Positions 1,631 through 24,661 of a stretch of 37,336 bases of DNA are shown here, piece after piece. This stretch comes from a virus, in the IMG/VR virus record IMGVR_UViG_3300025413_000005. The stretch is one strand, 5' to 3'. Each line of letters opens with the position of its first letter. The first letter of the stretch is position 1. The notes under the pieces were generated by a model. The model made no database searches, was not told where the DNA came from, and saw nothing but the letters and a program-made list of their open reading frames with translations. The position numbers were made by a program, and so were the translations under genes.

Positions 1631-2077
1631 ATGGATCAAAAGAGTAAAATGGACATCTTAAGCAAGATGGATATTTTTGAAGCGGAGCTATCAGAACTCC
1701 CTCAGGTTCATCTTCCTTTGATTCATCGTTTCACGCCCGGAATGTATGTCCGGGAAATTTTCATGCCGGCTGGGTGTTTTGTAACCACTCGCACCCACAA
1801 AACAGAACATCCGTATGTGGTCTTAAGTGGAGTAGCGGAAATCATCGACGAGAAGGGGAATAGTGAAATTGTGAGCGCTGGCCATATTGGGATTACCAAG
1901 CCAGGAACACGCCGCGTCTTAAAAATCCACAAGGATTGCCGGTGGCTAACTTTTCATGCCACGGAGGCAACAGACCCCGACGAAATCGCCGAGGAGATCA
2001 CAGAAAGCACTAACCCGCTTTTGAGGAAATCGTTCCAACAAATCTGTTTTGAGCGTCGGCAGACGCTTCCTGACTAA
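1631..2077 (+). CDS. Small cupin-like beta-barrel protein in the gp13 (internal virion protein) position
   Basis: 148-aa ORF. PGMYVREIFMPAGCFVTTRTHKTEHPYVVLSGVAEIIDEKG...GITKPGTRRV resembles a cupin His/Glu beta-barrel motif (weak, by eye). It lies between the tail tubular B gene and the internal virion genes. Confidence 0.5.
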   Translation: MDQKSKMDILSKMDIFEAELSELPQVHLPLIHRFTPGMYVREIFMPAGCFVTTRTHKTEHPYVVLSGVAEIIDEKGNSEIVSAGHIGITKPGTRRVLKIHKDCRWLTFHATEATDPDEIAEEITESTNPLLRKSFQQICFERRQTLPD

Positions 2078-2847
2078 TGGCTTTCGGCGTCACGGCAGTT
2101 GTTTCGGCAGGCTCAGCGCTGGTTTCCGCCGGTGTAGGGATTGCTGGCGGGATTATGTCTTCCAACGCTCAAAGGACAGCTGCCGCGAATAATGCTTACC
2201 TTTCACAAAAAGAAGCGGACGCCACCCTTGCCGTTTCGACCTATCAAAACAACCTGAACAAGGCCGTTGCTTTATCGAATGCCAGCGTGGCTGATCAAAA
2301 CGCCAATGTTTATCACTCGGCGGCCAGGACGACCGAAAACCTTGGATTTGAGCAGGAAACCCGAGACCTGATGAATCAGGACATGCAGCAATCAGGCGTG
2401 CGTGCTGAGTATGGCGCAAGTGGTGTCCAAGGGGACACAGGAAGCCCTCTTTCGGTTGCCGAGCATCAAGGCTACGTCGCGCAACTTCACCGCATGGACA
2501 CGGCGTATCAAACCAACGTCGCCGCCATGGATAAAGATTGGCAAGGCGCTCTTTCGACGTACCAGGCCTCATTAGATCGCGAATTGGCCACTCAATACGA
2601 TTACGCGAACCAGATGGCTCAATGGCAACACATTGCTGCTTACGCTGGCGCTGCGGTTCAGCAACAAACCGCTGATTCTCAAGCCACAGCCGCACTTATT
2701 GGTCAAGTTGGGCAAACCATCGGCCAAGTCGGGTCAGCTTTTGAAAATTACGGAATGGCTTCCTATAGGGCTTCTTCATACGGAGCCGGTGCCATTGGAG
2801 GCGGATACTATCAGCCCGGCATGAGTGTGCTGGTTCCTAATCGATAA
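2077..2847 (+). CDS. Putative internal virion/ejection protein (gp14 position)
   Basis: 256-aa ORF with TAATG overlap to the previous gene. Hydrophobic Gly/Ala-rich N-terminus (AFGVTAVVSAGSALVSAGVGIAGGIM), then a Q/A/N-rich helical region. Assigned by position in the T7-like gene order. Confidence 0.5.
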   Translation: MAFGVTAVVSAGSALVSAGVGIAGGIMSSNAQRTAAANNAYLSQKEADATLAVSTYQNNLNKAVALSNASVADQNANVYHSAARTTENLGFEQETRDLMNQDMQQSGVRAEYGASGVQGDTGSPLSVAEHQGYVAQLHRMDTAYQTNVAAMDKDWQGALSTYQASLDRELATQYDYANQMAQWQHIAAYAGAAVQQQTADSQATAALIGQVGQTIGQVGSAFENYGMASYRASSYGAGAIGGGYYQPGMSVLVPNR

Positions 2848-2850
2848 AAT

Positions 2851-4839
2851 ATGGCCAACATTCCTCTCTCAGAAATTCCCAACGCCCCGACGGCCGTTTT
2901 TACTCCGATCGCCGATCCCCATTACCAGGGCGACGTTGTAGGTGATCAGGCAAAGGCCGATATCCGACAAGGCTACCAAGCCAGCATGGTCAACCCCGAG
3001 GCTGCCGGAACGCTCGGGCGCGGCCTGACTCAACTCGGGGCCGGAATAGATAGGGGTCTTTCGGGGATTTCTTCTGGAATGCTTTTTCAAGATGCAGCAA
3101 ACCGCAGGCAACAGCTTGAAAGAGCTTCTGTTACAGGCATTCAGAAATTTTATCAAAACCAAGCCACTGTTCAAAATAACTACAGCGATTTAATGCAGGG
3201 GCAAGACCCCAAAATGGCTAGCGCTATGTGGCTTAAAGCGGCCGGCCAGCGCGGTGAAAATCTTCTTCAGGGCATGGATGAGTACGAGCAGTACGCCATG
3301 ACTCATAACGCGATGCACGTTTGGGGTACAGGCCTTATTAACTCTAACCAACAGGCTCGCAATCAGTTTCACCTTGAAACCGAAACGACAGCCAGGACCA
3401 CCCAAAACGACCTAGTCAAAGCCGAGAGATTTCCTGATGCGGTGAAGAATGCTGATGCCGCCTTGGCCAACAGAACAATTTCACCTCAGGAGCATCAAGT
3501 ATGGATGGACGGCATCCAAACCGCCCAACAGTTCTCGGGCCTACGCGACAAGGTTGCCTATGCCATTGGCAACGTCCGTGCCACCGGGACGCTTCCCGCG
3601 GATCAGCAAAGCGACGAGGCGGGGCTTTCCAACCAGCAATCCAAGCAATTCCTCCAACAGGTTCAAGATTCTTTTGTGGAAGGAAAGCCTCTTCCTGGTT
3701 TTGAAAAGTTGGGCGCCAAAGATATTTCAGCCGCTTACAAAATCGGCAGCTACCTTGATAATCAAAGCATGAATGCAGCGCAAGATAGCGCCATGGCACG
3801 CATTCAATCGGGCGGAAAGATTTCGCCCGATGATCTTCCCAAGCTTCCCGAGTGGAATCAAATGGATCAATCCCGGCAGCAGGCGGTGAGAGAAAGCCTC
3901 AACAATTACCGATACGGGACTCCGGAAGCTGCTGCTGATCGCGCTGAAATCTTAACCAACATTCAGAATTTCCCCACAAGCAAAGACCCGCTTCAGGAGG
4001 CTACCGACATTCGCAACAGCGCGATTGCCAAAATGCCTGATGACGATCAGCGAAAAGACGTCCTTGGCATTCTTGATTCCAAAATCAAGGAGATGAAAAG
4101 CAACGGCGGAAATCTCACGCCTCAGACTCAGGTGCATCAGTGGCTTTCCCAAAGCCTTACCCAGATGCTCAAAAACAATGCTTTTGGCGCGTATGACCCC
4201 GACCTTAAAGGAGGCACGCCCGATCAGCTCAAAAAGAATCTTTCTGCCCTGAATGTCAAAGAGGACGTTTACGAGGCGGTGCTGGCAAAGAATCCCAAGA
4301 CCCGCCTTGAGGCCCAAAAGTACCTTGATGACATGACGCGGCAATTCCGTGCGGGAGCGGCAGCCGGAGGAGGTGCATCCCAGCCACCCCAGCAAACGCC
4401 CCTAAAACCAGCTTCCTGGTGGAGCAATTTCCACACGAGCAATGATGGGTGGAACAGTGGAACGTCCACTTGGTTCGGAACATCTCCCGAGGGAAAGCCT
4501 GATCCTGAAGACAATGGAAACGGCAAATACGCCGGAACCAAGACAAGAGATCCCAATTTCCAAGGCGCTTCTCTTTCTGATGCGGTCCTGAGGGCTCATG
4601 GAATTGACCCCGAGAACAAGGATCAGGTTGCCCAGCACGAAGTTGAAGTTCGCAACGGCGACAAGACCGTCCGCGTGCCGATTGCCGACCTGGGACCGGC
4701 TAAACGGGTGGAGGCCCGCCAAGGAACCACCGTTGACCTTACTGGCGCTGTTCACAGGGCGCTTGCCCTCAAGAGCGATCAATACGAGCACGGCGCTCCG
4801 ATTCAATGGCGCATCGTCCCGAAAAATTCCAACGCCTAA
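2851..4839 (+). CDS. Internal virion protein (gp15 position) with C-terminal RlpA-like double-psi beta-barrel (lytic transglycosylase-type) domain
   Basis: 662-aa ORF. The C-terminus STWFG...GASLSDAVLRAHG...VEVRNGDKTVRVPIADLGP...TVDLTGAVHRAL follows the RlpA/DPBB pattern (SWYG ... VxVxNxxNGxxVxVxVxDRGP ... IDLSxAA). Confidence 0.65.
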   Translation: MANIPLSEIPNAPTAVFTPIADPHYQGDVVGDQAKADIRQGYQASMVNPEAAGTLGRGLTQLGAGIDRGLSGISSGMLFQDAANRRQQLERASVTGIQKFYQNQATVQNNYSDLMQGQDPKMASAMWLKAAGQRGENLLQGMDEYEQYAMTHNAMHVWGTGLINSNQQARNQFHLETETTARTTQNDLVKAERFPDAVKNADAALANRTISPQEHQVWMDGIQTAQQFSGLRDKVAYAIGNVRATGTLPADQQSDEAGLSNQQSKQFLQQVQDSFVEGKPLPGFEKLGAKDISAAYKIGSYLDNQSMNAAQDSAMARIQSGGKISPDDLPKLPEWNQMDQSRQQAVRESLNNYRYGTPEAAADRAEILTNIQNFPTSKDPLQEATDIRNSAIAKMPDDDQRKDVLGILDSKIKEMKSNGGNLTPQTQVHQWLSQSLTQMLKNNAFGAYDPDLKGGTPDQLKKNLSALNVKEDVYEAVLAKNPKTRLEAQKYLDDMTRQFRAGAAAGGGASQPPQQTPLKPASWWSNFHTSNDGWNSGTSTWFGTSPEGKPDPEDNGNGKYAGTKTRDPNFQGASLSDAVLRAHGIDPENKDQVAQHEVEVRNGDKTVRVPIADLGPAKRVEARQGTTVDLTGAVHRALALKSDQYEHGAPIQWRIVPKNSNA

Positions 4840-4842: not shown

Positions 4843-7800
4843 ATGCCTGATCCCGTTATGCCCGACCTTCCCATGGTCGAAAATCAAAGCCCCACAATCA
4901 ACTTGGGGCCTGATCAGTTCCATTTTGACCCCGTAGAAGCGGCCAATCAGTCGGCGGGAATGGCCCCCCAGCCCATTCATAATCCCGATTTTGCGTCCCA
5001 TCCGGAGCGCGATACGGTCCGCGCCGTCCTTAATGATCGCGCCAACCTTGGCGGAAAGCTCCCGCAAGCAGTCACCGATTCCAAGACCGATGACAATCCC
5101 CAGGATTTCCGAGACATGGCCGCCAACATCAAGGCAATGTCTTTTTATAGCGGAAAGGATACCGCTGAGATTTCCCCCAACTACGAGCAGGAGAAACAGA
5201 ATTTCGTAAAAGCACAGGGTTGGGACATGCCCAACTCAGAAGGGGCCTTTAATGGCCAGCTACGCGATTTTTTCAACACTCAGGACGCCCGACAGCAAGC
5301 GATTGAGGATCTTCATTCTAGGGCGATCCTGGACGCCGGAAAGGGCATTTCCTCCGATGAGGCGCTTCAAACATCCTGGCAAGAATGGAACACGCAACAT
5401 GCATCAGCCCTTGCCGGAGTTCCCGAGGCTGAGGCTTTTAGCGCCTGGAAAAAAGGTTACTGGAACAACCTCCAACAGCTTCAGGGCGAGCATCACGACC
5501 TTGCCCAGCAAATCGTTGATTTGTACGGCAACTTTCCTAAAGGCGAGCAGGAAGCCCAAGGGGTGAAGCAGTTGGCGGCCATAACGGCCGAGTCGGCAAA
5601 AGCACCGCTTGGCCTAGCTGGCGATCAGCCCGCCTTAAAAGCCCAGCAAACCGAGGATCAGCAAAAGGAAGAGCTTATCACCAAGCTTCAATCCCTGCCC
5701 CCGGAGGAACGCCAAAAGGTTTATCACCGCGCCGCCGCCCTGGAGAAAGCCAAGAACCCGGACAATTTCGGCATGGCCACGAGCCTTTACAGCATGGGAC
5801 AGGCAGCCGGGCGTTCGATGGATTGGCTTTCTCCTTCCGCTCCTGACGTATCGACTCCTCGTGGACGCGTTGCCTTGGAACTTCAGCACGCCGCCAGAGA
5901 CATCGTAAATCCCCTCCCCTATTCTGACGTCAATGCCTTGGACGCAACCAAAAAAGGCCTTCCAATCATTGGAACCCAAGTGGGCCAGGGTTTGGCTGGG
6001 GCTGTCCCGACGATTGGAGCTTTTGCACTCACGGGGGAATACGGCGGATTGGCCTACATGCTGGCTCAAACCTCGCTAGAAAACCGCGACCGGCTGCTTA
6101 TCAACAATCCCAGCATGACGCCCAAGGAAGCCCTTTCTTTTGGCTATCTGATGGCTGTTCCCGTCGTCGCACTTCAGTCGATTACCTTCATGGGCCTCAA
6201 GGGGGCTTTCCCATCCCTAGAAAAAGCCCTGGCTGATTGGGGTGCCGGAAAGATGTTTTTTGCTAACACGGCGGTTGGAGGTGCGGCCTTCAGTGCTTCG
6301 GAAATCGCTTCAAATCTGGCTGATTCCGCCATTCATGCCCTGAATGCAGAGTGGAATCCTGATGCCAGCGTCAAAAAGGGACTCAAAGAAACCCTTCTCA
6401 ACGCCCCTCAAGATTTTGCAATGGCCGCAGCCTTTGCCCTGCTTCACATTGGGCACAAGCCCGATACCGAAGCAGGAAAGAAACAAGCTGATCAGGCAAT
6501 GGCCGACGTCCAGAAGCCCGACGCCCCCAAGATGGTCACAACCGCCGATGGGGCTAAGGTCATTATTGCCCACGACGAAAAAGGCCAGCCCAAAGAGGTT
6601 TTCAAGACCAAGGATCCCGAGGTGGCCGCTTCCGCCCTGGAGATCGTCCACGACGAGCAAAGGCGCAACACAGACACCCCCACTCCTAAAAGCAAATGGA
6701 CCGGGGTAACGGACGATGCCAACGACGTGGCCAACGACGCGGCTAACTTCAACCTATCCAAAGATGATCAATCCCAAACTTCTAATGGAGAAAAAGGAGA
6801 CTTGACCAATTCCGCGACGGACGGAAAATCAAAGAATGCTGAAGCCGAAACATCAGGAACGCTTGCAAATACGGCAGATGCTAGCGAAGCGGGGTTGCCT
6901 ATTAGAACCCTCAATAGCAGTCTTGCATCGGAAAATAAATCGACGCGGGTCACGGCAGCAACTCCCGATCAACTTTCTAAACTTTCGTTAGACCCAAAAT
7001 TCCAGCTAGCAGATCAGTTAGCGGGAATCTTTAAGAAGCGGATCATTGTTTATTCGGGGGATGAAAATGACCCCAACGGAATTACCAGCCAAGCCACTGG
7101 TCTTGATCAATATATTTTCCTGAAGCTCGATGGAGCTAGGCCGCACTTATTTACCCTTGGCCATGAGCTATGGCATCACCTTGAGGCTGATTATAAGGAA
7201 TTAGCCAAATCGCTACGCAAAGAGCTGGCGCCCCTAATTAAGAATTGGGCGCAGATGAACGGAAAGTACCAATCCTACGGCTACAAGCCTCATCGTTTTT
7301 TTGATGAGCATGTTGCCGATTTTCTCGGCGATTCTTTCCAAGACCCAGATTTCCTAAACAACCTTCGCAATCGCAACCCAGAGGCATTCGCAGATTTCAC
7401 CACAAGGGCTCTTGAGTGGCTTAATGGTGTCCTTGAAAAGCTTAAAGGATGGGTCATGGGTGGAACCGATCACATGCGAGACATTCAATCAGCTCGCGAT
7501 ATGCTGGCCGAGGGGCTCGACAAATACCTCAACCAAGATGACAGCCCTATTGTTGGCCGCGACAGTCCTCAATGGTGGAAAGCCGAGCCCCGCGCCACTG
7601 GCGAGCGCCAGACTTTTACAGATGATCCAATCATTGCCTATCTCAATGAGAATAGGATTCGCTCTAAATCTGAGCAGGACAAAAGAAACAAATCCCAAGG
7701 CATCGAAGGAGCCGGGGAATATGACGGAGTTCCCAAGCTCCCCCCAGCCCATAGCTCTAAAATTTATGGGGGAAGTCAGAGCGTAGACCAAGCGCATCAA

Positions 7801-10800
7801 GCCCTTATTGAAGAAGGATACATGCCTGAAGATTCCACGGTCGATGACCTCTGGAATCACATAGCCAAGGCGAGTGAGAGCGCCATCAAGCAAACCAAGG
7901 CTGAAAAAGCTGAAACGGTACGTCAACGAGAAGAAGCAAAGTTTGACAAAGAACTTGCTGATTTACGCGAAAAAGACCCCGTAGAATATCGTAAGCGCCT
8001 TGCGGAGATGGAGCCAGAGGAACAAAAGCGAACCGAGCGAACGCAATTAAGAGAAAGAATGCGCCGCATGGATCGTGAAGACAGAAACTATTTCCAGAAC
8101 GCCAGGGAAGAGGACAAACGGGAAAACGAAGAAACCTTTTCTTTGAAAAACCCTGATGTTCAGGCCTACCTTGATTTAGCTCATGTCCCTGAAGAAAAAA
8201 AAGAGCAGGCCGGAGAAGCTTTTAGCCAAGTCGCCAATGCGTCAACCGCCCCCTACCCAAGGAGCGAAGTATCCGCTTCCGGAGGAGTGGATCGGGACGA
8301 GCTTCGACAAGTCCGCGAAGAACAAGCCGCCGCTTACCGGGGGCTGCTGAAAGGTGATGCCGAGGCGGTTAAAAATGCCATTGAAAACGGCGTGCCGCTT
8401 TCCAAGCTCATTGCCGCGTATGCCAAGGGAGAGGTAACGCCTTTCTCCATCCAAGGGGCAATTATCAATAGCCCCGCAGACTTGGCCGCGCACAATCTAG
8501 CGCACCGAACCCCTTTCTTTGAGAGTCTTAAAGTCGCCGTCCTCGACAACTCTAACCAAGTGATTCATTCGGAATTGATTTCGATTGGATCGCTCAATGA
8601 GTCGATAGCTCACCCGCGCGAAATCATGCGCGCCGTTGAACGTGGAAAACAAGTCGGCTCCGATTTAGGGCGCAAGATTAAAGGTTGGATGCTCATGCAT
8701 AATCATCCAAGCGGAGATCCTACCCCTAGCGAGACCGATAGGAGGCTTACTCGTCGGCTTGATGAGGTGGCCGGCATGATGGAATCCCCCCTTCTGGATC
8801 ATGTCATTACAAACGGGGAAACGTATTTTAGCTTTAATCAAGCAGGGATTAACGGAAGAGGCGTAAGCGGTGATTCGAAGCTGAAGCCAAAACTACAAAC
8901 TATCCCCAAGCCCGAAGACCTTAAAGAAGGCACAATGGCCGATTGGGAAGCCATTCCCGCCGGCGAGGCCCCAAGAATTGAACGTGCCGCAATGGTTCAA
9001 GCAATCAGGGCCACGCTTCAAACGGCTGATCCTGGAATGATTCATGTGCTGAACCTAAACACGCGCCATGGACTTATCAGCGTGGACAGGCACCCGCTCG
9101 ACGTATCCCCTGGAGAAATCCTCAAGCAGTCCTCTAAACACGGAACCTATGCCATAGCGCTTTCTTTCCCTGATACAAGCCCCGAGGGCGTTCCTATGGA
9201 CACGCAGGGCGCAATGGCTGCCTGGAGGCCGTTTGTCCGAAAGATGACCGAAGCGGGTACGCTCTATCAACTTCCACTTGTTGACGCCGTTACCAAGGAG
9301 TTTTCGTGGAGAGAGTCGGGATTGTTAGAGGAGCCTGGTAAATATGGATCAGATAACTCAGTTAATGAGGAAAAAACATATTTTCAAGCAGCGCGACCCG
9401 AGGACGATCACGTTTCCCCGCTTGAAAAGCTCAAGCAGCAAGCAAAAGCAACTTCTGATTACCTTCTCAAGCTCCCGCAAGACACGGCATTTTCTAGGGC
9501 AGTCCTAGACTTGAGCAAGAAGCGCCAGATTTCTACCCAGCAGATTCAGAAAGCTATCAAGGACATTGCAGAGGTGGCAAAGACGCCCGTAGAACGGGAA
9601 GCCCTCTTCAACTACATCGAAGCCAACGGGGACCGTGCAAAGCTCCAAAGGCAGGCCGACGCTACGGCAGACCCCAAGCTGAAAGCCGGTTACGAGGAAG
9701 CCGTCAAGGCATCCCCCGAAATGGTGGAGGTAGCCAAAGAGATTTCCAACGCCTACGCATCCATTTTGGCCCGTCTTCGTAAAGAAGGCTATGATGTCGG
9801 TGAACGCTCCAACTACGCAGGAACCCACCAATATAAAAAAGAACCAGGTGACAAGGCCCCCGTTGCCATCAAGAGGCTTACGGACAACTTCAAGTATGCC
9901 GAGAGGCGTGAGTTTAACACTGCATTTGACGCAGAGCAGGCGGGATTCAATGTCCGCACCAAGGATGCCGCTGAATTGCTGGGATCATATCTGTCCCACG
10001 CCAACGACATCCTCATCAATCGCCAGTTTGTTAAAAGCCTTTTTGGAAGCGGGGCAAAGGCAACCGATGAAAGGGCATTGGTCTCTCCCCGTGGAGGATT
10101 CGGCCAGAAGCCTAGCCCCGATTCCAAAGGTATTTACATTGACCCAGAAAGAGCACAAGTCGGAACGGCAGATTATGTTCCGCTAGATCAACCGGCGCTC
10201 AAAGGCTACCATTTCATTGACCAGAAGCAGAACATCGCGGTCAAAGGTGATTTTGCCGTTCACCCGGAGATTGCGCGGCATATTAACAACATCTTTGGGG
10301 AATCCAAACTGAAGCAGGCGTACAACGACCCGCACCTCAACCCTGCCCTAAAGCCGCTTGTTAAGATCCTACAGGGCGCAGATCTAGCCGGTCAGTATGC
10401 CAAAGCCACCCTTTACTCTGGTCTATCGTTTTTCCACCAAGCTCACGAAGGCTTCAACGTCATATTCCACGGGGTCAATCCGATTGAATACAAGTCTGCC
10501 CCCGACATTGAACATGACCCCCTCGCCCGTGATGCGGCAGAACATGGCGTCCAGTTGGCGCCTGACAGAATGACGCAGGATCAGTTCAAGCAAGAGATCG
10601 GAGAGCAAAGCAAGAGTCTCCTGACAATGGGTCTCCGAGCCGCAAAGCTGAAGCCAACCGATGCGGTAGCCGATTGGATTGACGGGTACACTCATTACCT
10701 TTTCGAAAACTACATCCCAAACATGAAGCTCAAAGCCTATCAGATGGCCCTTGAGCGCAACATGAAGCTTTTTGAAAAAGAATTGGCATCGGGTAAAGTG

Positions 10801-11793
10801 AATGAACGGCAAGTCAAGATGATGTCGGCATACCAGGCAAACGAGTATGCGGGACACCAGAACCTTACCGTGATGGGCAGAAGCCCGACCTTTCAGCACC
10901 TTGCTTCGATCTTCCTGGGCGCTCCCGATTTCCTAGAAGCGCAGGCACGTTTCCAAGGTCACGCCCTGCTTGGGCTAACCGGCTCCAAGGCTAATCGTGA
11001 GTTTCTTCGTGCAGCGGCATTGCAGGCAATCACGATGTTTATCGGCGCTAGGATTCTGAACTACGCAATCAATCAGGAGCTAGGCCTAGACCATCCTTTT
11101 GAGATCCGTATCAGAGATCGGTATTATGGATTCCGTTCTAGGACGGGTGACACCTACAACCTTATTAAAGACATTGTCGAAAACGGGGTGCCGACCACGT
11201 TCCTTTCTGGGCGAATTTCTCCTTTGGTTGGGAAATTTATGTTGGAGGCAGCTTCTCACAAAAACTACCGAGGGGAACGAGTTGGAATCGGCGGATTGAT
11301 TGCCGACACCCTTGCAGGAATCGTCCCAATTTCCACGCAACCCTTGATTCGCCAATGGACGACCACGGGTAAAAACAACCCTATTTCTGCTTTTGAGCAG
11401 TTGGTGGCAAACGTGCTTGGTTTCCAAATCCATCGGTATAGCCCGATTACCAACACCTACCCCATTGCACGGGCGTGGATGAAGGCCAACTACCCCGATA
11501 AGGTCAACGAGGACATTCACCCGACCGGCAAATTTACGCACCTCAAATACGCCCTTGAGGATGGCGACACTCAAAAATCGCAAGATGAAATCCAAAACCT
11601 TTTAAAGTCGGGCATGACCCTTCAACAAATCTCCACCAAGTTTAAGGCGAGTCTCAACCACCCGTTCACGGATTCAAAAGAGCATGAAGAGGAGTTTGTA
11701 AAATCATTGGAAGGGGAACACCTCAAAACTTACCAAGCAGCCATGGAAAGAAAAAAACTGATCCTAGAGCGGTTCCAGAACCTCCCTAGATAG
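4843..11793 (+). CDS. Giant (2316 aa) polyvalent internal virion/ejection protein: membrane-insertion segments, HExxH zincin domain, E/R/K helix, RadC-like JAB domain plus degenerate second JAB, large C-terminal region
   Basis: Uninterrupted 6951-nt ORF in the gp16 position. HELWHH at 7162-7179. MLMHNHPSGDPTPSETD (HNHPSG 8698-8715) is the RadC/JAB metal site. Hydrophobic G/A-rich segments at about 5950-6460. Confidence 0.9.
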   Translation: MPDPVMPDLPMVENQSPTINLGPDQFHFDPVEAANQSAGMAPQPIHNPDFASHPERDTVRAVLNDRANLGGKLPQAVTDSKTDDNPQDFRDMAANIKAMSFYSGKDTAEISPNYEQEKQNFVKAQGWDMPNSEGAFNGQLRDFFNTQDARQQAIEDLHSRAILDAGKGISSDEALQTSWQEWNTQHASALAGVPEAEAFSAWKKGYWNNLQQLQGEHHDLAQQIVDLYGNFPKGEQEAQGVKQLAAITAESAKAPLGLAGDQPALKAQQTEDQQKEELITKLQSLPPEERQKVYHRAAALEKAKNPDNFGMATSLYSMGQAAGRSMDWLSPSAPDVSTPRGRVALELQHAARDIVNPLPYSDVNALDATKKGLPIIGTQVGQGLAGAVPTIGAFALTGEYGGLAYMLAQTSLENRDRLLINNPSMTPKEALSFGYLMAVPVVALQSITFMGLKGAFPSLEKALADWGAGKMFFANTAVGGAAFSASEIASNLADSAIHALNAEWNPDASVKKGLKETLLNAPQDFAMAAAFALLHIGHKPDTEAGKKQADQAMADVQKPDAPKMVTTADGAKVIIAHDEKGQPKEVFKTKDPEVAASALEIVHDEQRRNTDTPTPKSKWTGVTDDANDVANDAANFNLSKDDQSQTSNGEKGDLTNSATDGKSKNAEAETSGTLANTADASEAGLPIRTLNSSLASENKSTRVTAATPDQLSKLSLDPKFQLADQLAGIFKKRIIVYSGDENDPNGITSQATGLDQYIFLKLDGARPHLFTLGHELWHHLEADYKELAKSLRKELAPLIKNWAQMNGKYQSYGYKPHRFFDEHVADFLGDSFQDPDFLNNLRNRNPEAFADFTTRALEWLNGVLEKLKGWVMGGTDHMRDIQSARDMLAEGLDKYLNQDDSPIVGRDSPQWWKAEPRATGERQTFTDDPIIAYLNENRIRSKSEQDKRNKSQGIEGAGEYDGVPKLPPAHSSKIYGGSQSVDQAHQALIEEGYMPEDSTVDDLWNHIAKASESAIKQTKAEKAETVRQREEAKFDKELADLREKDPVEYRKRLAEMEPEEQKRTERTQLRERMRRMDREDRNYFQNAREEDKRENEETFSLKNPDVQAYLDLAHVPEEKKEQAGEAFSQVANASTAPYPRSEVSASGGVDRDELRQVREEQAAAYRGLLKGDAEAVKNAIENGVPLSKLIAAYAKGEVTPFSIQGAIINSPADLAAHNLAHRTPFFESLKVAVLDNSNQVIHSELISIGSLNESIAHPREIMRAVERGKQVGSDLGRKIKGWMLMHNHPSGDPTPSETDRRLTRRLDEVAGMMESPLLDHVITNGETYFSFNQAGINGRGVSGDSKLKPKLQTIPKPEDLKEGTMADWEAIPAGEAPRIERAAMVQAIRATLQTADPGMIHVLNLNTRHGLISVDRHPLDVSPGEILKQSSKHGTYAIALSFPDTSPEGVPMDTQGAMAAWRPFVRKMTEAGTLYQLPLVDAVTKEFSWRESGLLEEPGKYGSDNSVNEEKTYFQAARPEDDHVSPLEKLKQQAKATSDYLLKLPQDTAFSRAVLDLSKKRQISTQQIQKAIKDIAEVAKTPVEREALFNYIEANGDRAKLQRQADATADPKLKAGYEEAVKASPEMVEVAKEISNAYASILARLRKEGYDVGERSNYAGTHQYKKEPGDKAPVAIKRLTDNFKYAERREFNTAFDAEQAGFNVRTKDAAELLGSYLSHANDILINRQFVKSLFGSGAKATDERALVSPRGGFGQKPSPDSKGIYIDPERAQVGTADYVPLDQPALKGYHFIDQKQNIAVKGDFAVHPEIARHINNIFGESKLKQAYNDPHLNPALKPLVKILQGADLAGQYAKATLYSGLSFFHQAHEGFNVIFHGVNPIEYKSAPDIEHDPLARDAAEHGVQLAPDRMTQDQFKQEIGEQSKSLLTMGLRAAKLKPTDAVADWIDGYTHYLFENYIPNMKLKAYQMALERNMKLFEKELASGKVNERQVKMMSAYQANEYAGHQNLTVMGRSPTFQHLASIFLGAPDFLEAQARFQGHALLGLTGSKANREFLRAAALQAITMFIGARILNYAINQELGLDHPFEIRIRDRYYGFRSRTGDTYNLIKDIVENGVPTTFLSGRISPLVGKFMLEAASHKNYRGERVGIGGLIADTLAGIVPISTQPLIRQWTTTGKNNPISAFEQLVANVLGFQIHRYSPITNTYPIARAWMKANYPDKVNEDIHPTGKFTHLKYALEDGDTQKSQDEIQNLLKSGMTLQQISTKFKASLNHPFTDSKEHEEEFVKSLEGEHLKTYQAAMERKKLILERFQNLPR

Positions 11794-11850: not shown

Positions 11851-11871
11851 GGACATCTCCTAAAGATGTCC
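11851..11871 (+). promoter_or_regulatory. Hairpin sequestering the tail fibre start codon
   Basis: ggacatct (11851-11858) / cctaa loop / agatgtcc (11864-11871): a perfect 8-bp stem. The ATG 11866-11868 lies in the 3-prime arm. Confidence 0.35.
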
Positions 11872-14397
11872 GTTTCAAACCTTCAATCCTCAACAGGGGC
11901 GCTGGTCGGGAATAACTCGACCACGACGGGGTACGTCGTCCCGTTTGCTTTTCAGCTTCCTTCAGACTTGGTAGTCGTTCGAAGGGATTCCAGCGGCAAT
12001 GTTTATTTTTTGGGTATCGGCACGGATTACACCGTGACTCAGAACTCCAATCTTTCCGGCGGTACCGTTTACACAATCGCGCCATGGGATTCGACCAATA
12101 CCCTGGTCATTACACGAGTTGTTCCCCTCACCCAGCTACTAAACCTCATTCCCGGCGCAAAAGAACCGGCAGCGGCCATTACACAGGCTTTTGACAAGCT
12201 GACCTATATCGCTCAGCAGCTTTCCCGTAACTCCGTTCCCGACACCATCACGGCTTTAGGCGTGGGGCCTTATGTCTTGGGACTCTCTGCTGCTGGTGGC
12301 ACCCCGACCTGGACGAGTCAGTCTTCTGCTTCTATTGCTGACGGGTCTATTACCCCTGCCAAGCTATCTGCTGGCAAGCCTACTTGGAATACTAGCGGCA
12401 ACCTGACCGCGACATCTTTTATCGGCCCCGTAACAGGGAATGTGACAGGTAACCTCACCGGCAATGTCACAGGCAATGTCACAGGCAATGTCACAGGCAA
12501 TGTCACAGGCACGGCATCCAATATTGCCGACGGGGCGGTTTCTTCATCTGCAAAACTTGCAGCCGGATCGGTATCAACGGACAAAATAATCGATCAGGCT
12601 GTTTCCACTGGAAAATTAGCCGATCAGGCTGTTTCCACTGGAAAATTAGCCGATCAGGCTGTCACTGGCCAAAAAATAGCCGATGGGACAATTTCCATCA
12701 CAAAGCTTGACAATGACGCCAACGAGCGCCTTTTTGAGTCCACTCCGTCGGGAGTAGCTTGCGACGGAAGGATTCAAGGGATTGCGATCGTCATACCTGG
12801 AGCGCTTTATACATCGCCGCCCGTGGTTACAATTTCGGCGCCTCCATCTGGAGGCATTCAGGCCACGGCATCTGCGACTTTAGGAACAGGAAGTAAAGCC
12901 GGGCAAGTAATCTCGATTTCCGTCACCAATAAGGGCAAAGGATACAAAACAGATCCAACGGTAACTTTTTCTTCACCTCCGACAGGAGGGACGATTGCTA
13001 AAGCGATTGCCTACGCCGACACCTCTGGAATCGAACAGGGCTCCAGTAATGCAGGAGGAAGCCAGGAGTGCATTTCCTTCATTATGAAGGACGGTCAGAT
13101 TATGAGCGTCGGGGCAAACAACGGCTATGGATACGTTGGAGCTCTCGGGGACATTGACTATACCGTACTACCCCAGCCCGCCTCGACGGGGGGATTATCA
13201 GCTAAATTTGTACGCCTCTGGAAGGCGTGGCATAACATGTATGCCCTGGACACCGCCGGGCAACTTTGGGCGTGTGGAATTGGAGGCGTGGGGGCCCTAG
13301 GTGCAAACAATTCCTCAAGTGATTGGCGGCAATTAAATCAAACTTCTGTTCCCGCTCCGGTTGCCAAGTTTGCAACAAGCTACGGAAGGGATAACAACGC
13401 ATGCCTAGCGCTGCTTGGAGATGGCCGCCTTTACGGTTGGGGCTACAATGCGCAAGGAGCGCTTGGAGACAATACGCTAACAAACGTCATCAACCCCAAA
13501 ATCATTTCTTCACCGATTTCAGGAATTTGGACCGCCGAAAGCAACATTGTTAATTTTGCTTTGATTGGAGCAGATGGAAGTATATCCACGTTTCTGCTTC
13601 GCTCTGATGGAACTGTGCGGAGCGCTGGCCGCAACGATTACGGCCAGCTTGGCCACGGAACGGCTAACCCCTACGAATACAATGGGTTTTCTTATGTCCT
13701 AACGGCAGCTAATACGCTGTTAAGTTCGGTTAAAAAGATCGTAGGGTGCGGAGCAAGCACTTATGGAACTACGCTATTTTTGCGAACCGATGGCACTATT
13801 TACGCCTGCGGTAGAGGTTCGAATGGCCAACTTGGCAATGGAACAACGCCAGCCAATCAAAATTTTGCTCAACCTTGCTCAATTACAGGCGCGGCAAACA
13901 TTTGGGCAACTGGCGGCCCGGGCGGATCTACTGGTCATATCCATGTCCTAAAAAGCGATGGATCACTTTGGGCTTGGGGCCACAACAATGCTGGTCAACT
14001 AGGGACGGGAGCGGCAACTCCGGTCAATGTTAGCGCTCCTGTGCAAGTATGGCCCGCGGCCAATGGCATCGTTGTCGATGTGGCCCAGCATGGCGGAGCT
14101 GATACAGGCGGAACCATGATCCTCCTTGCGGATGGAAGAATGTTTTACACCGGAAATGGAGCTTATGGATGCCGTGGCGACGGAGGAACGGGAACCACGA
14201 ACGGACAATGGACTCAAGTTCAGCTTAACCGCCGCGACATCGTGGACATCAATTTTGGATCCAATCAAGACGCGCCCGTAATGACCATCCTCACTTCCAC
14301 CGGCGAAGTCTATGCGTGCGGAATCAATTTGCGCGGCACCCTTGGAAATGGCCGCACATACACTCTAAGAAGCATGCCAGGCAGAGTCGTTTTCTAA
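11866..14397 (+). CDS. Tail fibre: T7 gp17-like N-terminal tail-attachment domain, tandem-repeat shaft, C-terminal RCC1-type beta-propeller
   Basis: The N-terminus YVVPFAFQLPSDLVVVRRD...GTDYTVT...VITRVVPLTQ matches the gp17 N-terminal pattern (FNIPFEYL..VVV..DY..L.R.T; T7 sequence recalled from memory). The C-terminus has repeated GxNxxGQLG/GALG motifs (RNDYGQLGHG, GSNGQLGNG, HNNAGQLGTG, YNAQGALGDN, INLRGTLGNG). Confidence 0.85.
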   Translation: MSVSNLQSSTGALVGNNSTTTGYVVPFAFQLPSDLVVVRRDSSGNVYFLGIGTDYTVTQNSNLSGGTVYTIAPWDSTNTLVITRVVPLTQLLNLIPGAKEPAAAITQAFDKLTYIAQQLSRNSVPDTITALGVGPYVLGLSAAGGTPTWTSQSSASIADGSITPAKLSAGKPTWNTSGNLTATSFIGPVTGNVTGNLTGNVTGNVTGNVTGNVTGTASNIADGAVSSSAKLAAGSVSTDKIIDQAVSTGKLADQAVSTGKLADQAVTGQKIADGTISITKLDNDANERLFESTPSGVACDGRIQGIAIVIPGALYTSPPVVTISAPPSGGIQATASATLGTGSKAGQVISISVTNKGKGYKTDPTVTFSSPPTGGTIAKAIAYADTSGIEQGSSNAGGSQECISFIMKDGQIMSVGANNGYGYVGALGDIDYTVLPQPASTGGLSAKFVRLWKAWHNMYALDTAGQLWACGIGGVGALGANNSSSDWRQLNQTSVPAPVAKFATSYGRDNNACLALLGDGRLYGWGYNAQGALGDNTLTNVINPKIISSPISGIWTAESNIVNFALIGADGSISTFLLRSDGTVRSAGRNDYGQLGHGTANPYEYNGFSYVLTAANTLLSSVKKIVGCGASTYGTTLFLRTDGTIYACGRGSNGQLGNGTTPANQNFAQPCSITGAANIWATGGPGGSTGHIHVLKSDGSLWAWGHNNAGQLGTGAATPVNVSAPVQVWPAANGIVVDVAQHGGADTGGTMILLADGRMFYTGNGAYGCRGDGGTGTTNGQWTQVQLNRRDIVDINFGSNQDAPVMTILTSTGEVYACGINLRGTLGNGRTYTLRSMPGRVVF
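12436..12507 (+). repeat. 12-nt in-frame tandem repeat, 6 units (GNVT/GNLT)
   Basis: gggaatgtgaca ggtaacctcacc, then ggcaatgtcaca x4 exact (12460-12507). Confidence 0.95.
12591..12680 (+). repeat. 30-nt in-frame tandem repeat, 2 exact units plus 1 diverged (DQAVSTGKLA)
   Basis: cgatcaggctgtttccactggaaaattagc at 12591-12620 and 12621-12650 (identical); diverged copy at 12651-12680. Confidence 0.95.
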
Positions 14398-20607: not shown

Positions 20608-21098
20608 GCTTCCCCGGCGCCGCCCTTCCAAGCTTTCCCGTCATTCCGATGGGAGAAACCAACCCAAAAACAACAACACCCATGTCTTACACATCACTAA
20701 AAGCTGAAACCGACACTATTACGGCTAAAATACAAAGCATCGTAGACCTCATTCGCACGGCAACGCTTGCCGAGCTACAGGTCATCGAAGGGCACCTTGG
20801 TCTTGCTCGTCAGGATATTGCCCCTGAGACCACCACTTTTCGCGATTTTGACTATCGCCTCGGACTGATCGTGAACGAGCTTCATAACGTCGAATCTGAA
20901 ATGTTGGACGCCGTGGCTTTTGTTCTGGCTCCCCCCGTAGAGCAAACTAGCCCAACGGATCCCGAAGCAATCCCCGTCCCCTTAACCCCTGAGGTTAATG
21001 AAATCACTCAGGCCCCCGCCGATACCACCGCCGAAAACGGTGCAGCCTCTTCAGGCGCTTCGGCTGAGGCCGCCAACCCTGATCAGCCCGTCTCCTGA
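20604..21098 (+). CDS. Acidic hypothetical early protein
   Basis: 164-aa ORF with ATGA overlap. From Met at 20682, hand count 22 Asp/Glu vs 6 Lys/Arg. No recognisable motif. Confidence 0.55.
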   Translation: MSFPGAALPSFPVIPMGETNPKTTTPMSYTSLKAETDTITAKIQSIVDLIRTATLAELQVIEGHLGLARQDIAPETTTFRDFDYRLGLIVNELHNVESEMLDAVAFVLAPPVEQTSPTDPEAIPVPLTPEVNEITQAPADTTAENGAASSGASAEAANPDQPVS

Positions 21099-21107
21099 TT
21101 GGGAACC

Positions 21108-21200
21108 ATGCGCCTTCTTCTTCGATTCCTGGAAATCATCCGGCTCAGGAAGAAGGCGCAACCTTTCTCCAAACACAACCGCATTACATGGAAACCATGA
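21108..21200 (+). CDS. Possible 30-aa basic peptide
   Basis: ATG 21108 ... TGA 21198-21200, ATGA-coupled to the next small ORF. MRLLLRFLEIIRLRKKAQPFSKHNRITWKP. Supported only by fit in an otherwise empty 240-nt gap. Confidence 0.2.
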   Translation: MRLLLRFLEIIRLRKKAQPFSKHNRITWKP

Positions 21201-21313
21201 TTTTAGCCCTTGGCGCCTGCCTGTGCTCCTTCCTCATCGGAAGGCTCTCGGTGGGTGCCTTCAGCAAAGAAGAAAGGCCGGAAGACGCAGCAACGTCCTC
21301 CGACCTTGATTGA
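21197..21313 (+). CDS. Possible 38-aa single-TM peptide
   Basis: MILALGACLCSFLIGRLSVGAFSKEERPEDAATSSDLD: a hydrophobic helix plus an acidic tail. Too short to be sure. Confidence 0.25.
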   Translation: MILALGACLCSFLIGRLSVGAFSKEERPEDAATSSDLD

Positions 21314-21338
21314 ACGAAACCCTAGAGAAGTAACGAAC

Positions 21339-22457
21339 ATGTCCACTGAAACCCTAGAAGCCCCATCCGTCAAGCCCCAAGCCTCGCAAGGCATTGAGCT
21401 TGAGCAGTTCGCCGACGCCGTAACCCTTGGAGAGGAGCGCTTGCTTGACTCCGGTGATTACGACTTTGCCGCGGCCAAGGCCCACGCCCTTTTCCGGGCA
21501 TGGGCTCCCACCTTTATCCCCACCCTGGCATCCCATGATGTCCTTGAAGTGGAGAGCGAGTTCTCTTTCCCGCTCCTCAACCCCGAGAGCGAGGCCCCGT
21601 CCAAGACGTTTGTGGAGGCCGGAAAGATTGACGGAGTCCTTCGCCACAAGGCCAGCGGCACCATTAAGACCCTGGAGCACAAGACCACAAGCGATTCCAT
21701 CGCGCCGGATTCCAATTATTGGCCCCGGCTCATCATGGACACGCAGCCGAGCAAATACATCCTCTCGCTCCAGCATCGCGGGATCGTTGCCAACTCTGCC
21801 CTCTACAACGTGGTCAGTAAGCCCGCCCAGCGCCCCAAGGGAATCCCCATTCTCGATGAAGAAGGGCGCAAGATTGTCCTGGATTCAGACGGCCAGCGCG
21901 TTTTCACCAAGGACGGCAAGAAGCCCCGCGAGACAGGAAGCCCCGCCGATGGGTATTTCCTCCAGACCCGCGAGGAAACCCCCGAGGAGTTCCATCATCG
22001 CATCCTAGATGAGTTGACCGGCTCCCCCGGCGATTACTTCGCCCAACGGGAGATCCCCCGCCAGGACCGGGCGCTTTTGGAATACATGGAGGACGCATGG
22101 GCTCTCTCCCAGCAAATCCTCTACTTCCGCCGCTCCAACCTCTGGCCGCGCAATCCTTCGGCCTGCACGCAGTTCGGAACCTGTGAGTTCTTTGACCTGT
22201 GCTCGGGCCGCGCCTCAGTGGATGGGATCCGCTACGCCGCAAAGCCCAAGCGCCACGCCGAGCTTGAGACGCCCGAAAACGGCAAGGAGTTCCTGACCAA
22301 CTCTCGCCTTTCGGCGCTTCGCAAGTGTTCGCGCTACCACTTCCACCGCTACGAGCAACCCATCAAGCCCATCCGCGATGAAGACGAGGCGCTCCGCATT
22401 GGCAGCGCTTTCCACGTCGCCGTTGAGGCCTTCCTTGCAACCTTCCTCGTCAAATAA
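21339..22457 (+). CDS. PD-(D/E)XK nuclease of the Cas4/RecB/AddB type with Cys cluster (recombination exonuclease)
   Basis: ATG 21339 (the track's 21210 is a non-ATG extension). GKIDGVL ... LEHKT (D...ExK, 21675-21683), QPSKY (QxxxY), CTQFGTCEFFDLC (22164-22202). The canonical 'N-terminal' motif SRLSALRKCSRYHFHRY...GSAFHVAVEAF sits at the C-terminus. Confidence 0.8.
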   Translation: MSTETLEAPSVKPQASQGIELEQFADAVTLGEERLLDSGDYDFAAAKAHALFRAWAPTFIPTLASHDVLEVESEFSFPLLNPESEAPSKTFVEAGKIDGVLRHKASGTIKTLEHKTTSDSIAPDSNYWPRLIMDTQPSKYILSLQHRGIVANSALYNVVSKPAQRPKGIPILDEEGRKIVLDSDGQRVFTKDGKKPRETGSPADGYFLQTREETPEEFHHRILDELTGSPGDYFAQREIPRQDRALLEYMEDAWALSQQILYFRRSNLWPRNPSACTQFGTCEFFDLCSGRASVDGIRYAAKPKRHAELETPENGKEFLTNSRLSALRKCSRYHFHRYEQPIKPIRDEDEALRIGSAFHVAVEAFLATFLVK

Positions 22458-22483
22458 CCCCGTCACCCCAAAAAACCAACACC

Positions 22484-22855
22484 ATGAAAGCCCAACAGAT
22501 CGCCACCATCCTTTCAGTCCTTCTGGCCGAAAAAGAACCCTCCGAGTCCGTGAAGACCTGCGAGGAGACCACAGTCCACCCCATGCTCGGAAAGCGGTGC
22601 CTCATCCGCACCTACTCGGCAGGAGTCCACATTGGTGACATTGAGCATGTCAACGGCATGGAGGTGAAGCTCAAGAACGCCCTACGCCTCTGGAAGTGGG
22701 AGGGGGGCGGCTTATCGCTCTCGGCTGTCGCCAACAACGGCATCAAGGGAGGCCGACTCAACCGCACTGGCGAGGTCTACCTGACCAACGTCATCGAGAT
22801 GATTCCGACGACAGGGGAGGCGGAAAAGACCTATGTCAAATTCATCGAGGATTAA
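22484..22855 (+). CDS. Conserved-looking phage protein of unknown function
   Basis: 123 aa. GKRCLIRTYSAGVHIGDI...ALRLWKWEGGGLSLSAVANNG...VIEMIPTT resembles a small phage protein family I have seen in recombination/replication regions (memory only). Confidence 0.65.
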   Translation: MKAQQIATILSVLLAEKEPSESVKTCEETTVHPMLGKRCLIRTYSAGVHIGDIEHVNGMEVKLKNALRLWKWEGGGLSLSAVANNGIKGGRLNRTGEVYLTNVIEMIPTTGEAEKTYVKFIED

Positions 22856-23102
22856 GGAGCTGCACCACGGTCATGAGTGCAAGGACGGCTCCGGCTACGG
22901 CGACGGCTCCGGCGACGGCTCCGGCTACGGCTCCGGCTACGGCTACGGCGACGGCTCCGGCGACGGCGACGGCGACGGCTCCGGCGACGGCTCCGGCTAC
23001 GGCTCCGGCTACGGCTCCGGCTACGGCGACGGCGACGGCTCCGGCGACGGCTCCGGCTACGGCGACGGCTACGGCTACGGCGACGGCTCCGGCGACGGCT
23101 AA
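22833..23102 (+). CDS. Low-complexity protein: 17-aa His/Cys-containing head plus strictly alternating (X-Gly)36, X = Asp/Ser/Tyr
   Basis: ATG 22833 (23-nt overlap with the upstream gene), stop 23100-23102. All frames are open over the repeat, so frame choice is uncertain. This frame is the only one with an ATG upstream of the whole array, and it uses common-looking codons (GGC GAC TCC TAC). Confidence 0.45.
   Translation: MSNSSRIKELHHGHECKDGSGYGDGSGDGSGYGSGYGYGDGSGDGDGDGSGDGSGYGSGYGSGYGDGDGSGDGSGYGDGYGYGDGSGDG
22884..23099. repeat. 216-nt hexanucleotide array made only of GACGGC, TCCGGC and TACGGC units (36 units)
   Basis: Read directly. No deviation from the NNCGGC pattern across 36 units. 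Confidence 0.95.
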
Positions 23103-23169
23103 GCGAACCGCCGCACCAACTCAATCACCACTCTAACCATCTACCCCCAACAACCAACCCCGTCATAAC

Positions 23170-24060: not shown

Positions 24061-24064
24061 CCCC

Positions 24065-24661
24065 ATGGCCTACGAATCCAACAACAATAACGCCGACCGC
24101 TACGTTTCCCGCGTGGGAACCTTTCGCTGTGTCGTGCTCCCCACTCCCAACGGCATTTTCTCCGAGAGCAAGGAGGGAACCCCCTGCATCGCCCTTCCCC
24201 TGGAGGTGATCGACGCCGGTGATCAGCAGGGTAAGCGTATCACCTGGAAGGGCTGGCTCACTGCCGGTGCCTTTGACTACACGATCCGTGCTCTTTCCAA
24301 GGCTTTTGCCTGGGATGGAGACCTGGAGGCTATCCGCGACAACCCAGAGTTTTTCTCCCGTTCGGAATGCGCGATCGTCACCGAGAGCGAGACTTACAAC
24401 GGGGAGACCCGCGTGAAGGTCAAATGGCTCAACTCTGCAAACGGAGGCGGAGCCAAGGCGATGGACTCACAGAAGCTCAACGGGATCCTTTCCGGACTTG
24501 GCCGCAAGGCCAAGGCGATTGCCAAGGAAGCCCTTGCCGAGGATGGGGCAACACCCGTTCCAACCACTCTGAGCGCACCGCGCCCGAGCGCCCATGACCG
24601 CGCCAAGGCCAACGGATACGCGCCCGAAACCGACCTTGCCGAGGACGACATTCCCTTTTGA
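24065..24661 (+). CDS. Non-canonical SSB-like protein with bacterial SSB C-terminal tip (…EDDIPF)
   Basis: ATG 24065. 198 aa with a disordered Ala/Pro-rich tail ending AEDDIPF, as in E. coli SSB (DDDIPF). Sits directly after the Sak4-like gene, as cognate SSBs do. Confidence 0.7.
   Translation: MAYESNNNNADRYVSRVGTFRCVVLPTPNGIFSESKEGTPCIALPLEVIDAGDQQGKRITWKGWLTAGAFDYTIRALSKAFAWDGDLEAIRDNPEFFSRSECAIVTESETYNGETRVKVKWLNSANGGGAKAMDSQKLNGILSGLGRKAKAIAKEALAEDGATPVPTTLSAPRPSAHDRAKANGYAPETDLAEDDIPF

Follow-up and report, generated by a model that had tools for sequence, protein, structure and literature searches.

A 37,336-nucleotide (nt) stretch of viral DNA (IMG/VR record IMGVR_UViG_3300025413_000005), referred to in full as the window, carries on its + strand an uninterrupted open reading frame (ORF) encoding 2316 amino acids (aa). 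It starts with ATG, 3 nt past the stop codon of an upstream 662-aa ORF. An earlier description made from the DNA letters alone (the sequence-only reading) had taken the gene for one continuous frame in the position of T7 gene 16, and both points hold: the frame is intact, and the gene order (nozzle, 148 aa, 256 aa, 662 aa, 2316 aa, tail fibre) places the protein in that slot, a statement that concerns position only. The same order was found in the related genomes L001, L002 and L009; the contigs encoding the homologues P0002 and P0006 share it with the window.

The identical 2316-aa protein is encoded on two independent contigs, and the homologue P0001 is collinear with it over 100% of its length at 67% identity, indicating that the ORF is not an assembly chimera or artefact. 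The protein divides into conserved terminal modules and a middle composed of separate cassettes (Table 1).

Table 1. Positions of the 2316-aa gene, its modules and its neighbours in the window
Feature	Position (nt)	Strand	Residues (aa)	Basis
Entire gene, encoding the 2316-aa polyvalent protein; slot of gp16, the largest ejection protein	4843-11793	+		ORF; homologue P0001; gene order in L001 and L002
N-terminal conserved module, no known family	4843-6657	+	1-605	Common to P0001-P0008, P0010, P0013, P0014
Hydrophobic cluster I, four Gly/Ala-rich segments	5959-6450	+	373-536	Kyte-Doolittle peaks 1.04-1.61
D/N/S/T-rich low-complexity linker, first cassette junction	6658-6942	+	606-700	47% D/N/S/T
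Zincin-like module	6964-7527	+	708-895	HELWH 7162-7176; E822xxxD826 7306-7320; profile, conservation, AlphaFold2
Charged E/R/K-rich spacer	7888-8142	+	1016-1100	51% E/R/K, 58% charged; Pro1046, Pro1058
RadC-like JAB domain	8458-8847	+	1206-1335	PF04002; JAMM motif 8698-8739
RadC-associated domain, fold not known	8965-9342	+	1375-1500	Travels with RadC domain; low model confidence
C-terminal conserved module type A, mostly helical, no known family	9373-11790	+	1511-2316	Relatives; stand-alone proteins
Hydrophobic cluster II (absent from the sequence-only reading)	11002-11337	+	2054-2165	Kyte-Doolittle peaks 1.46, 1.51
256-aa protein, gp14 slot	2077-2847	+		Weak PHROG 418 'internal virion protein' match, E=1.7e-4
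662-aa protein, gp15 slot	2851-4839	+		Position and size only
Tail fibre, distal RCC1 repeats; downstream end of ejection-protein block	11866-14397	+		PHROG tail-protein match, aa 14-119; Pfam RCC1-like, E=4e-52

Conserved ends flank an exchangeable middle

A full-length homologue search identified 15 giant proteins of 1919-3304 aa on contigs of 8-55 kb. The N-terminal module (aa ~40-605, including its hydrophobic cluster) is present in 11 of the 15, at 24-87% identity, and a hidden Markov model (HMM) search added P0016 and P0040, giving thirteen. The type-A C-terminal module is shared with seven relatives (P0001, P0002, P0003, P0005, P0007, P0009 and P0011), and a C-terminal module of ~900 aa, designated type B, is found in six (P0004, P0006, P0008, P0010, P0013 and P0014). 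Homology between the two types was considered and is not supported, hhalign returning a probability of 1%; they are apparently unrelated.

Between these ends the content varies. The pairing of metallopeptidase and RadC domain seen in the 2316-aa protein is found in P0001 and P0002, an unassigned cassette with RadC in P0003, the metallopeptidase alone in P0004, LPD5 with LPD1 in P0005, a PBECR1 RNase in P0006 and P0013, a GNAT domain in P0010 and, by a weak match, ART-PolyVal in P0014; additionally, P0012 carries RadC with MuF_C and P0015 carries LPD38. The sequence-only reading had recognised here the polyvalent-protein architecture described for phages and conjugative elements (Iyer, Burroughs, Anand, de Souza and Aravind 2017, J Bacteriol; PMC5512222), and the presence of LPD5, LPD1, PBECR1 and ART-PolyVal at the same place in relatives with this N-terminal module bears it out.

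As a separate observation, the unassigned cassette of P0003 (residues ~628-1015) gave no Pfam match at E≤0.001; by eye its string 'ISGRHRLD' resembles a ParB/sulfiredoxin-type motif, and ParB-like domains are among the polyvalent-protein modules of Iyer et al. (PMC5512222).

Sliding-window identity to the three closest relatives is 70-97% across the N-terminal module, 91-99% across the cassettes where these are present, and ~40% from aa ~1500 onward, with abrupt breakpoints at low-complexity linkers. A sharp recombination breakpoint lies at 9340-9375 (aa ~1500-1511): upstream of it the identity to P0001-P0003 is 91-99%, downstream it is ~40% to every known relative. Because the adjoining fibre is also replaced beyond its first 118 residues, the C-terminal module and the fibre may have been swapped as a unit.

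A search with aa 1511-2316 retrieved plain proteins of 845-1408 aa (P0163-P0169), in which the module forms the C-terminal bulk and no cargo is recognisable. This word-indexed search returned a set that does not overlap that of the full-length search, and its negatives are not equated with absence. One of the proteins, P0166 (1280 aa, encoded in L009), has the size of T7 gp16 and occupies the same slot: nozzle-like, 150-, 170- and 599-aa genes precede it and a fibre-like gene follows. The existence of a cargo-free C-module protein at this position is the best evidence that the ends of the 2316-aa protein represent an ejection-protein chassis and its middle an insertion.

The zincin-like metallopeptidase module

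A zincin motif had been placed at 7162-7179 by the sequence-only reading. HELWH (aa 774-778) does begin there, but the given span covers only HELWHH, while the full 15-residue string FTLGHELWHHLEADY occupies nt 7150-7194. From residue frequencies, an HExxH string is estimated to arise by chance in ~7% of proteins this long, so the significance of the module comes from its conservation and not from the motif alone.

Significant profile matches had been anticipated for both the zincin and the RadC/JAB domain; they were obtained for RadC/JAB (see below), but the zincin region has none in Pfam, PHROG or PDB sequence-profile searches. Neither the whole protein nor ten overlapping pieces of it produced a Pfam or PHROG match at E≤1 in this region, and a PDB sequence search with a profile of 25 module sequences returned only noise. 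When 25 diverse members of the family were compared with Pfam, isolated weak matches to M78, M48 and Zn_peptidase_2 were obtained (E 0.003-0.07), and none matched the Pfam polyvalent-protein metallopeptidase model. A word-indexed homologue search with the zincin segment returned nothing although P0001 is 93% identical within this segment, and negatives from that search are likewise not equated with absence.

An exhaustive search of 1.84 billion cluster representatives, using a profile of five copies, identified 3385 representatives at E≤0.001 and 1440 at E≤1e-10, nearly all in proteins of 1000-5000 aa. Statistics on length, position and accompanying modules were taken from the best 147 representatives. 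Here the median protein length is ~2500 aa and the median relative position of the zincin is 0.45, i.e. mid-protein. The N-terminal module described above accompanies it in 3/147 and the C-terminal module in 9/147; a H[NST]HP[SG]G motif is also found alongside it in 9/147, indicating that the pairing of metallopeptidase and RadC-type motifs recurs. The segment is a discrete module, recurring at other positions in P0004, P0012 and P0015.

In 162 aligned copies H774 and E775 are conserved in 100%, H778 and E822 in 99%, G773 in 95% and D826 in 86%. Judged by its residues, HExxH...ExxxD is a gluzincin signature. A confident AlphaFold2 model built with 25 diverse sequences (predicted local distance difference test, pLDDT, 85.3; predicted template modelling score, pTM, 0.80) shows a helix, three strands, the HExxH helix, further helices and a Glu-bearing helix, with HExxH within helix 73-88 and the Glu within helix 121-136 (model numbering). 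This order of elements matches the zincin core of Iyer et al. (PMC5512222), a zincin-like topology. Compared with predicted viral structures (BFVD), it gave 12 matches at E≤0.001 (best E~1e-12, template modelling (TM) score 0.75-0.78), nearly all annotated as 'large polyvalent protein-associated domain-containing', PolyVal ADP-ribosyltransferase or IrrE N-terminal-like. Weak matches among solved structures (E 0.04-3, TM ~0.25) are mostly zincins, including M61, PprI, PPEP-3 and leukotriene A4 hydrolase as well as DPP3, BepA, ERAP1 and ACE.

The zincin identity proposed by the sequence-only reading is thus supported by the invariant HExxH...E of 162 homologues, by the topology of the model and by its structural matches to polyvalent models. 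From alignment and predicted structure we conclude that the region is a real and widespread domain of metallopeptidase type, of the sort treated by Iyer et al. as the hub of polyvalent proteins, and that it belongs to a clade missed by family libraries. A zincin-like metallopeptidase is the commonest domain and the hub of the polyvalent class in the analysis of Iyer et al. (PMC5512222).

The RadC-like JAB domain and its companion

The sequence-only reading had located HNHPSG at 8698-8715 within a RadC-like JAB domain with an intact metal site. The motif lies at exactly these coordinates (aa 1286-1291), and the assignment is confirmed by a Pfam PF04002 match over aa 1211-1335 (E=3.5e-27; 95.2 bits against a gathering cut-off of 22.1), by a match to PDB 2QLC (E=8e-15) and by an intact JAMM motif HxHx7SxxD (H1286, H1288, S1296 and D1299), which is conserved in 6/6 aligned homologues. 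This motif makes the domain active-looking, as far as its residues indicate. The NCBIfam models of full-length RadC (NF000642 and TIGR00608) scored 90 and 86 bits, below their respective cut-offs of 180 and 134, and matched only at profile positions ~95-216, the C-terminal half, showing that this is a RadC-type JAB domain and not a RadC orthologue.

Where the sequence-only reading spoke of RadC/JAB modules in the plural, one is confirmed by PF04002 and a second is not. Aa 1375-1500 resemble by eye a degenerate JAB copy minus HxH, but comparison with the RadC domain by hhalign gave a probability of 5%, so the resemblance is no more than suggestive. This segment of ~125 residues always accompanies the RadC domain, as in P0003, P0007 and P0012.

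RadC was placed in polyvalent proteins by Iyer et al. (PMC5512222), who noted that phage versions adjoin virion genes, argued that the clade lacks the groove for a ubiquitin tail, and favoured nucleic acids or nucleotides as its substrate. No usable account of an experimentally defined anti-defence role of RadC/JAB domains emerged from a literature search.

Terminal modules, hydrophobic clusters and linkers

The N-terminal module gave no Pfam, PHROG or PDB sequence match. Gly/Ala-rich hydrophobic segments had been described at nt ~5950-6460, in good agreement with the four peaks of cluster I, the strongest of which (1.61) is at aa 431-449; comparable peaks occur in P0005, P0006, P0007 and P0010. 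The layout with two hydrophobic clusters is also seen in relatives with either type of C-terminal module. The C-terminus of the 2316-aa protein is basic, as in T7 gp16.

The D/N/S/T-rich linker that had been described at ~6700-6960 is present. Here similarity to P0003, P0004 and P0006 stops and P0002 gains an insertion of ~160 aa. The charged stretch was found only in P0001 and P0002 (76-82% identity). Its earlier description as almost purely E/R/K is wrong, as Table 1 shows; it contains 0.16 opposite-charge i/i+4 pairs per residue and its longest proline-free stretches are 45 aa. Because Pro1046 and Pro1058 interrupt it, a single continuous helix of 80 residues is unlikely.

Genome setting and neighbouring genes

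The final 127 bases of the window (37210-37336) are identical to its first 127 (1-127), so the assembly closes into a circle of ~37,209 bp. The tail-nozzle gene crosses the junction of this circle (~36091-37336 continuing into 1-1590), its two parts matching residues 2-515 and 474-1003 of the 1002-aa nozzle of L001. The window encodes an integrase, an exonuclease, a Sak4-like annealing protein, a replication initiator, a DnaC-like loader and the large terminase, together with a T7-type portal, major capsid protein, tail tubular protein A and nozzle; this content identifies a temperate podovirus with a structural module of the T7/BPP-1 type. Its portal is at most ~27% identical to those of GenBank phages, the best being BPP-1, pelagiphages and Cobetia phage Carin1. 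Among GenBank phages, megablast with the 2316-aa gene gave no match and tblastn with the protein gave nothing apart from RadC-domain matches, and two scans of representative bacterial genomes found no prophage relative.

In podoviruses generally, genes of gp14-like and gp15-like type are followed, within one small operon, by a larger gene of gp16-like type (reviewed in PMC8954989). In the window, the 256-aa protein has the size and position of T7 gp14 and BPP-1 Bbp12 and is 73-76% identical to its counterparts in L001 and L002. The 662-aa protein, for which family scans and a PDB sequence search gave no match, is 47-57% identical to its counterparts in the same two genomes, and the 148-aa protein, whose PHROG matches are named short tail fibre or adhesin and which has a weak cupin match, is 54% identical to theirs. 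For the head and neck proteins, identity to L001 and L002 is 85-95%. Conservation of the tail fibre with relatives is limited to its first 118 aa, an N-terminal adaptor; the distal parts in L001 and L002 are unrelated and shorter, and the RCC1-repeat part of the fibre is presumably a beta-propeller receptor-binding domain.

Elsewhere in the window, G+C content rises to ~60-62% at ~21000-25000, compared with ~52-55% in the remainder. This stretch covers the exonuclease and Sak4-like recombination genes and may be a module of different origin.

A probable cargo-carrying ejection protein

Starting from gene position, domain identities, intact catalytic motifs and cassette swapping among relatives, all of which are direct observations, we consider it probable that the 2316-aa protein is the largest ejection protein of this temperate podovirus, whose structural module is of the T7/BPP-1 type, and that it has been expanded into a polyvalent carrier of cargo. 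Its chassis would consist of the ~600-aa N-terminal module with one hydrophobic cluster and the ~800-aa C-terminal module with the second. The cargo would be the ~900 residues between them, in which low-complexity linkers would split a gluzincin-type metallopeptidase, the charged spacer, the RadC-like JAB domain and the RadC companion into cassettes. Linkers are placed at aa ~606-700, ~1016-1100, ~1340-1370 and ~1500-1510.

We infer that the protein is packaged in the head and expelled unfolded through the tail, before the DNA. Its two hydrophobic regions would then insert into the inner membrane and the middle would reach the host cytoplasm, as has been proposed for T7 gp16. The membrane-interacting regions of gp16 are residues 243-410 and 1119-1290, and the segment between them has been assigned to the host cytoplasm (PMC8954989); by analogy with this topology, cassettes lying between the clusters would enter the cytoplasm. 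There the metallopeptidase would most likely cut the polyprotein at its linkers and free the cargo. Such self-processing was proposed for polyvalent proteins by Iyer et al. (PMC5512222), and it is favoured here because the zincin clade sits mid-protein in very many multi-cassette giants and because the cassettes are separated by linkers. The RadC-like domain would act on a nucleic-acid or nucleotide substrate in the first minutes of infection. That the protein is injected into the host and has the counter-defence role suggested by the sequence-only reading is something that we infer only.

Several points weigh against this picture of an expanded ejection protein. The assignment to gp16 is positional only, since no module resembles T7 gp13-gp16, Bbp10-12 or any solved structure other than RadC: BLASTP and the N- and C-module HMMs gave nothing better than E~0.1 against T7 gp13-gp16, BLASTP and the N- and C-module profiles detected no similarity to BPP-1 Bbp10-12, and the PDB sequence search returned no gp16 chain and no relative of any module except the RadC homologue. 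The hydrophobic segments are modest, with only one reaching 1.6 on the Kyte-Doolittle scale. The AlphaFold2 model of aa 1345-2316 is poor (pLDDT 49), and no fold is called for the C-terminal module. Compared with solved structures, the zincin model gave no match at E≤0.001 (best E=0.039, TM 0.25). Moreover, because the zincin clade is carried on many other chassis, the role of the peptidase need not be tied to ejection.

The main alternative, the one stressed by the sequence-only reading, concerns what the cargo does. It is possible, though on the unlikely side, that the metallopeptidase and the RadC-like domain are independent injected effectors acting against host targets (defence proteins, repressors or ubiquitin-like conjugates), whether or not the polyprotein is cleaved; the peptidase would then be directed at the host and would not process the polyprotein itself. 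Strong constraint acts on the catalytic motifs, which are intact, relatives hold evident host-directed enzymes at the same position (the PBECR1 RNase, GNAT and ART-PolyVal), and the weak structural neighbours of the zincin model include proteases of the PprI/IrrE type, which cleave regulatory proteins. Action on host targets after injection is also allowed for by Iyer et al. (PMC5512222). However, the RadC clade is argued to lack a ubiquitin-tail groove (PMC5512222), and the mid-protein placement of the zincin in giants of this length fits housekeeping processing at least equally well.

We think it quite improbable that the metallopeptidase instead serves envelope penetration, acting in the periplasm as a cutter of peptidoglycan peptides or of an envelope protein and replacing a lytic transglycosylase. 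Such an enzyme would fill a gap, as Pfam, PHROG and NCBIfam scans detected no lytic transglycosylase, lysozyme or other wall hydrolase in the 148-, 256-, 662- and 2316-aa proteins, while BPP-1 Bbp11 and T7 gp16 are annotated with lytic transglycosylase; a role of this kind has been proposed for the metallopeptidase of gp47 from the Stx phage phi24B by the authors of a 2026 preprint (10.64898/2026.04.10.717836). Yet P0003, P0006, P0008 and P0010, which have the same N-terminal module and genome type, have no metallopeptidase, and the enzyme is therefore not essential for penetration in this lineage; its placement between the hydrophobic clusters would also, by analogy with T7, make it part of the cytoplasmic portion. 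To our knowledge, no phage peptidoglycan peptidase is a zincin of the HExxH-plus-Glu kind.

Least likely of all is that the protein is not ejected but is a structural or assembly component (an internal scaffold or a head-filling protein) or acts late, its enzymes working in replication or assembly: packaging is itself only predicted and none of the modules shows homology to a characterised ejection protein, but placement in the gp14/gp15/gp16 block beside nozzle and fibre is kept in five related genome contexts, the 3-nt gap indicates tight coupling to the upstream gene, and proteomics has found a polyvalent protein in podovirus virions (phi24B).

An extension of the ejection-protein reading, more speculative and in our judgement rather doubtful, is that the protein in the gp16 slot is a general cargo chassis, that whatever cassette recombines into the stretch between its membrane regions is threaded into the cytoplasm before the DNA, and that the zincin clade is its built-in releasing protease. 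If this were true, polyvalent proteins would be podovirus ejection proteins in many phages, and a large family of peptidases of unknown function would gain a concrete one.

Contribution and significance

With its effector domains, domain types of the polyvalent network, mosaic orthologues and late virion neighbours, the 2316-aa protein falls within the working definition of a polyvalent protein. Both the class and a precedent for it in podovirus ejection are already published (PMC5512222; 10.64898/2026.04.10.717836), which weakens any claim to novelty, and the suggestion of the sequence-only reading that an ejection protein of this kind would be new was overstated. As far as our searches show, the N- and C-terminal chassis modules are undescribed. 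The analysis adds the dissection into chassis and cargo, the occurrence of a stand-alone C-terminal module at this gene position, a two-cluster hydropathy layout that parallels gp16 and Bbp10, and the size of a metallopeptidase clade invisible to Pfam.

The prediction for polyvalent proteins is that they act in the infected cell before any other phage product, and almost none has been studied experimentally. The present case is a readable example, with a small complete genome of a temperate podovirus, cargo boundaries marked by natural swaps and a plain version of the C-terminal module in the ejection slot. It could help in learning how cargo is delivered and released and, eventually, in engineering phages that inject chosen enzymes; it also draws attention to a large zincin clade that is absent from current family databases.

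Comparison with known systems

The 2316-aa protein resembles the polyvalent class in being one giant polypeptide with unrelated effector-type domains (a RadC-like JAB domain and a zincin with HExxH and a downstream Glu), in being encoded among late virion genes with orthologues that vary in domain content, and in having relatives that carry the defining Pfam families LPD1, LPD5, PBECR1, ART-PolyVal, MuF_C and LPD38. It differs in that its zincin clade is matched by no Pfam model, the polyvalent one included, and in that its type-A C-terminal module also exists as a plain cargo-free protein. This last feature ties the 2316-aa protein to a specific virion role.

Two further phage proteins offer partial parallels. 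The virion RNA polymerase of coliphage N4, gp50, is similarly tripartite, with an N-terminal injection region, an enzymatic middle and a C-terminal encapsidation region, the last of which, in the analysis of Iyer et al. (PMC5512222), includes a zincin-like metallopeptidase; its RNA polymerase cargo and its virion type are different, and no sequence relationship was found. Phi24B gp47 (2811 aa) is a podovirus polyvalent protein with LPD5, LPD1, LPD38 and MuF-C domains, which is abundant in virions by mass spectrometry, invisible in the reconstruction and proposed by its authors to be an ejection protein (10.64898/2026.04.10.717836). Its cassettes are different from those described here; the tblastn search of the phage collection gave RadC-domain matches only, gp47 not having been compared directly.

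The T7 order is gp12, gp13, gp14 (196 aa), gp15 (747 aa), gp16 (1318 aa) and gp17. Like the 2316-aa gene, gene 16 is the last and largest of the block between nozzle and fibre and follows genes for gp14- and gp15-sized proteins, and a hydropathy scan of gp16 shows hydrophobic clusters at 319-408 and 1136-1269, a likeness that is analogy and not membership. In contrast to gp16, the 2316-aa protein has no lytic transglycosylase domain, has no sequence similarity to it, is 1000 residues longer and carries enzymatic cassettes in place of the gp16 C-terminal region.

BPP-1 is also a temperate podovirus, with the order bbp13, bbp12 (231 aa), bbp11 (720 aa), bbp10 (2052 aa) and the fibre gene bbp9. 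Tblastn with the 2316-aa protein found no metallopeptidase or RadC in BPP-1, Bbp10 has no detectable similarity to the protein's own modules, and the portals are ~27% identical. However, Bbp10, annotated as 'crystallin beta/gamma motif-containing protein', is likewise a giant in the identical slot before the fibre, and its hydrophobic clusters (221-372 and 1871-1959) lie at the same relative positions. The top BFVD match found by Foldseek with the model of aa 1345-2316 is a podovirus protein of the same product name (E=1.6e-6, TM 0.15), which, given the poor quality of that model, may be taken as a hint only. Additionally, a profile of the type-B C-terminal module gave a modest match to Bbp10 of BPP-1 (L006; E=1e-7 in a set of 7 sequences, 19 bits), which hints that Bbp10 may belong to the same broad set of ejection-slot giants.

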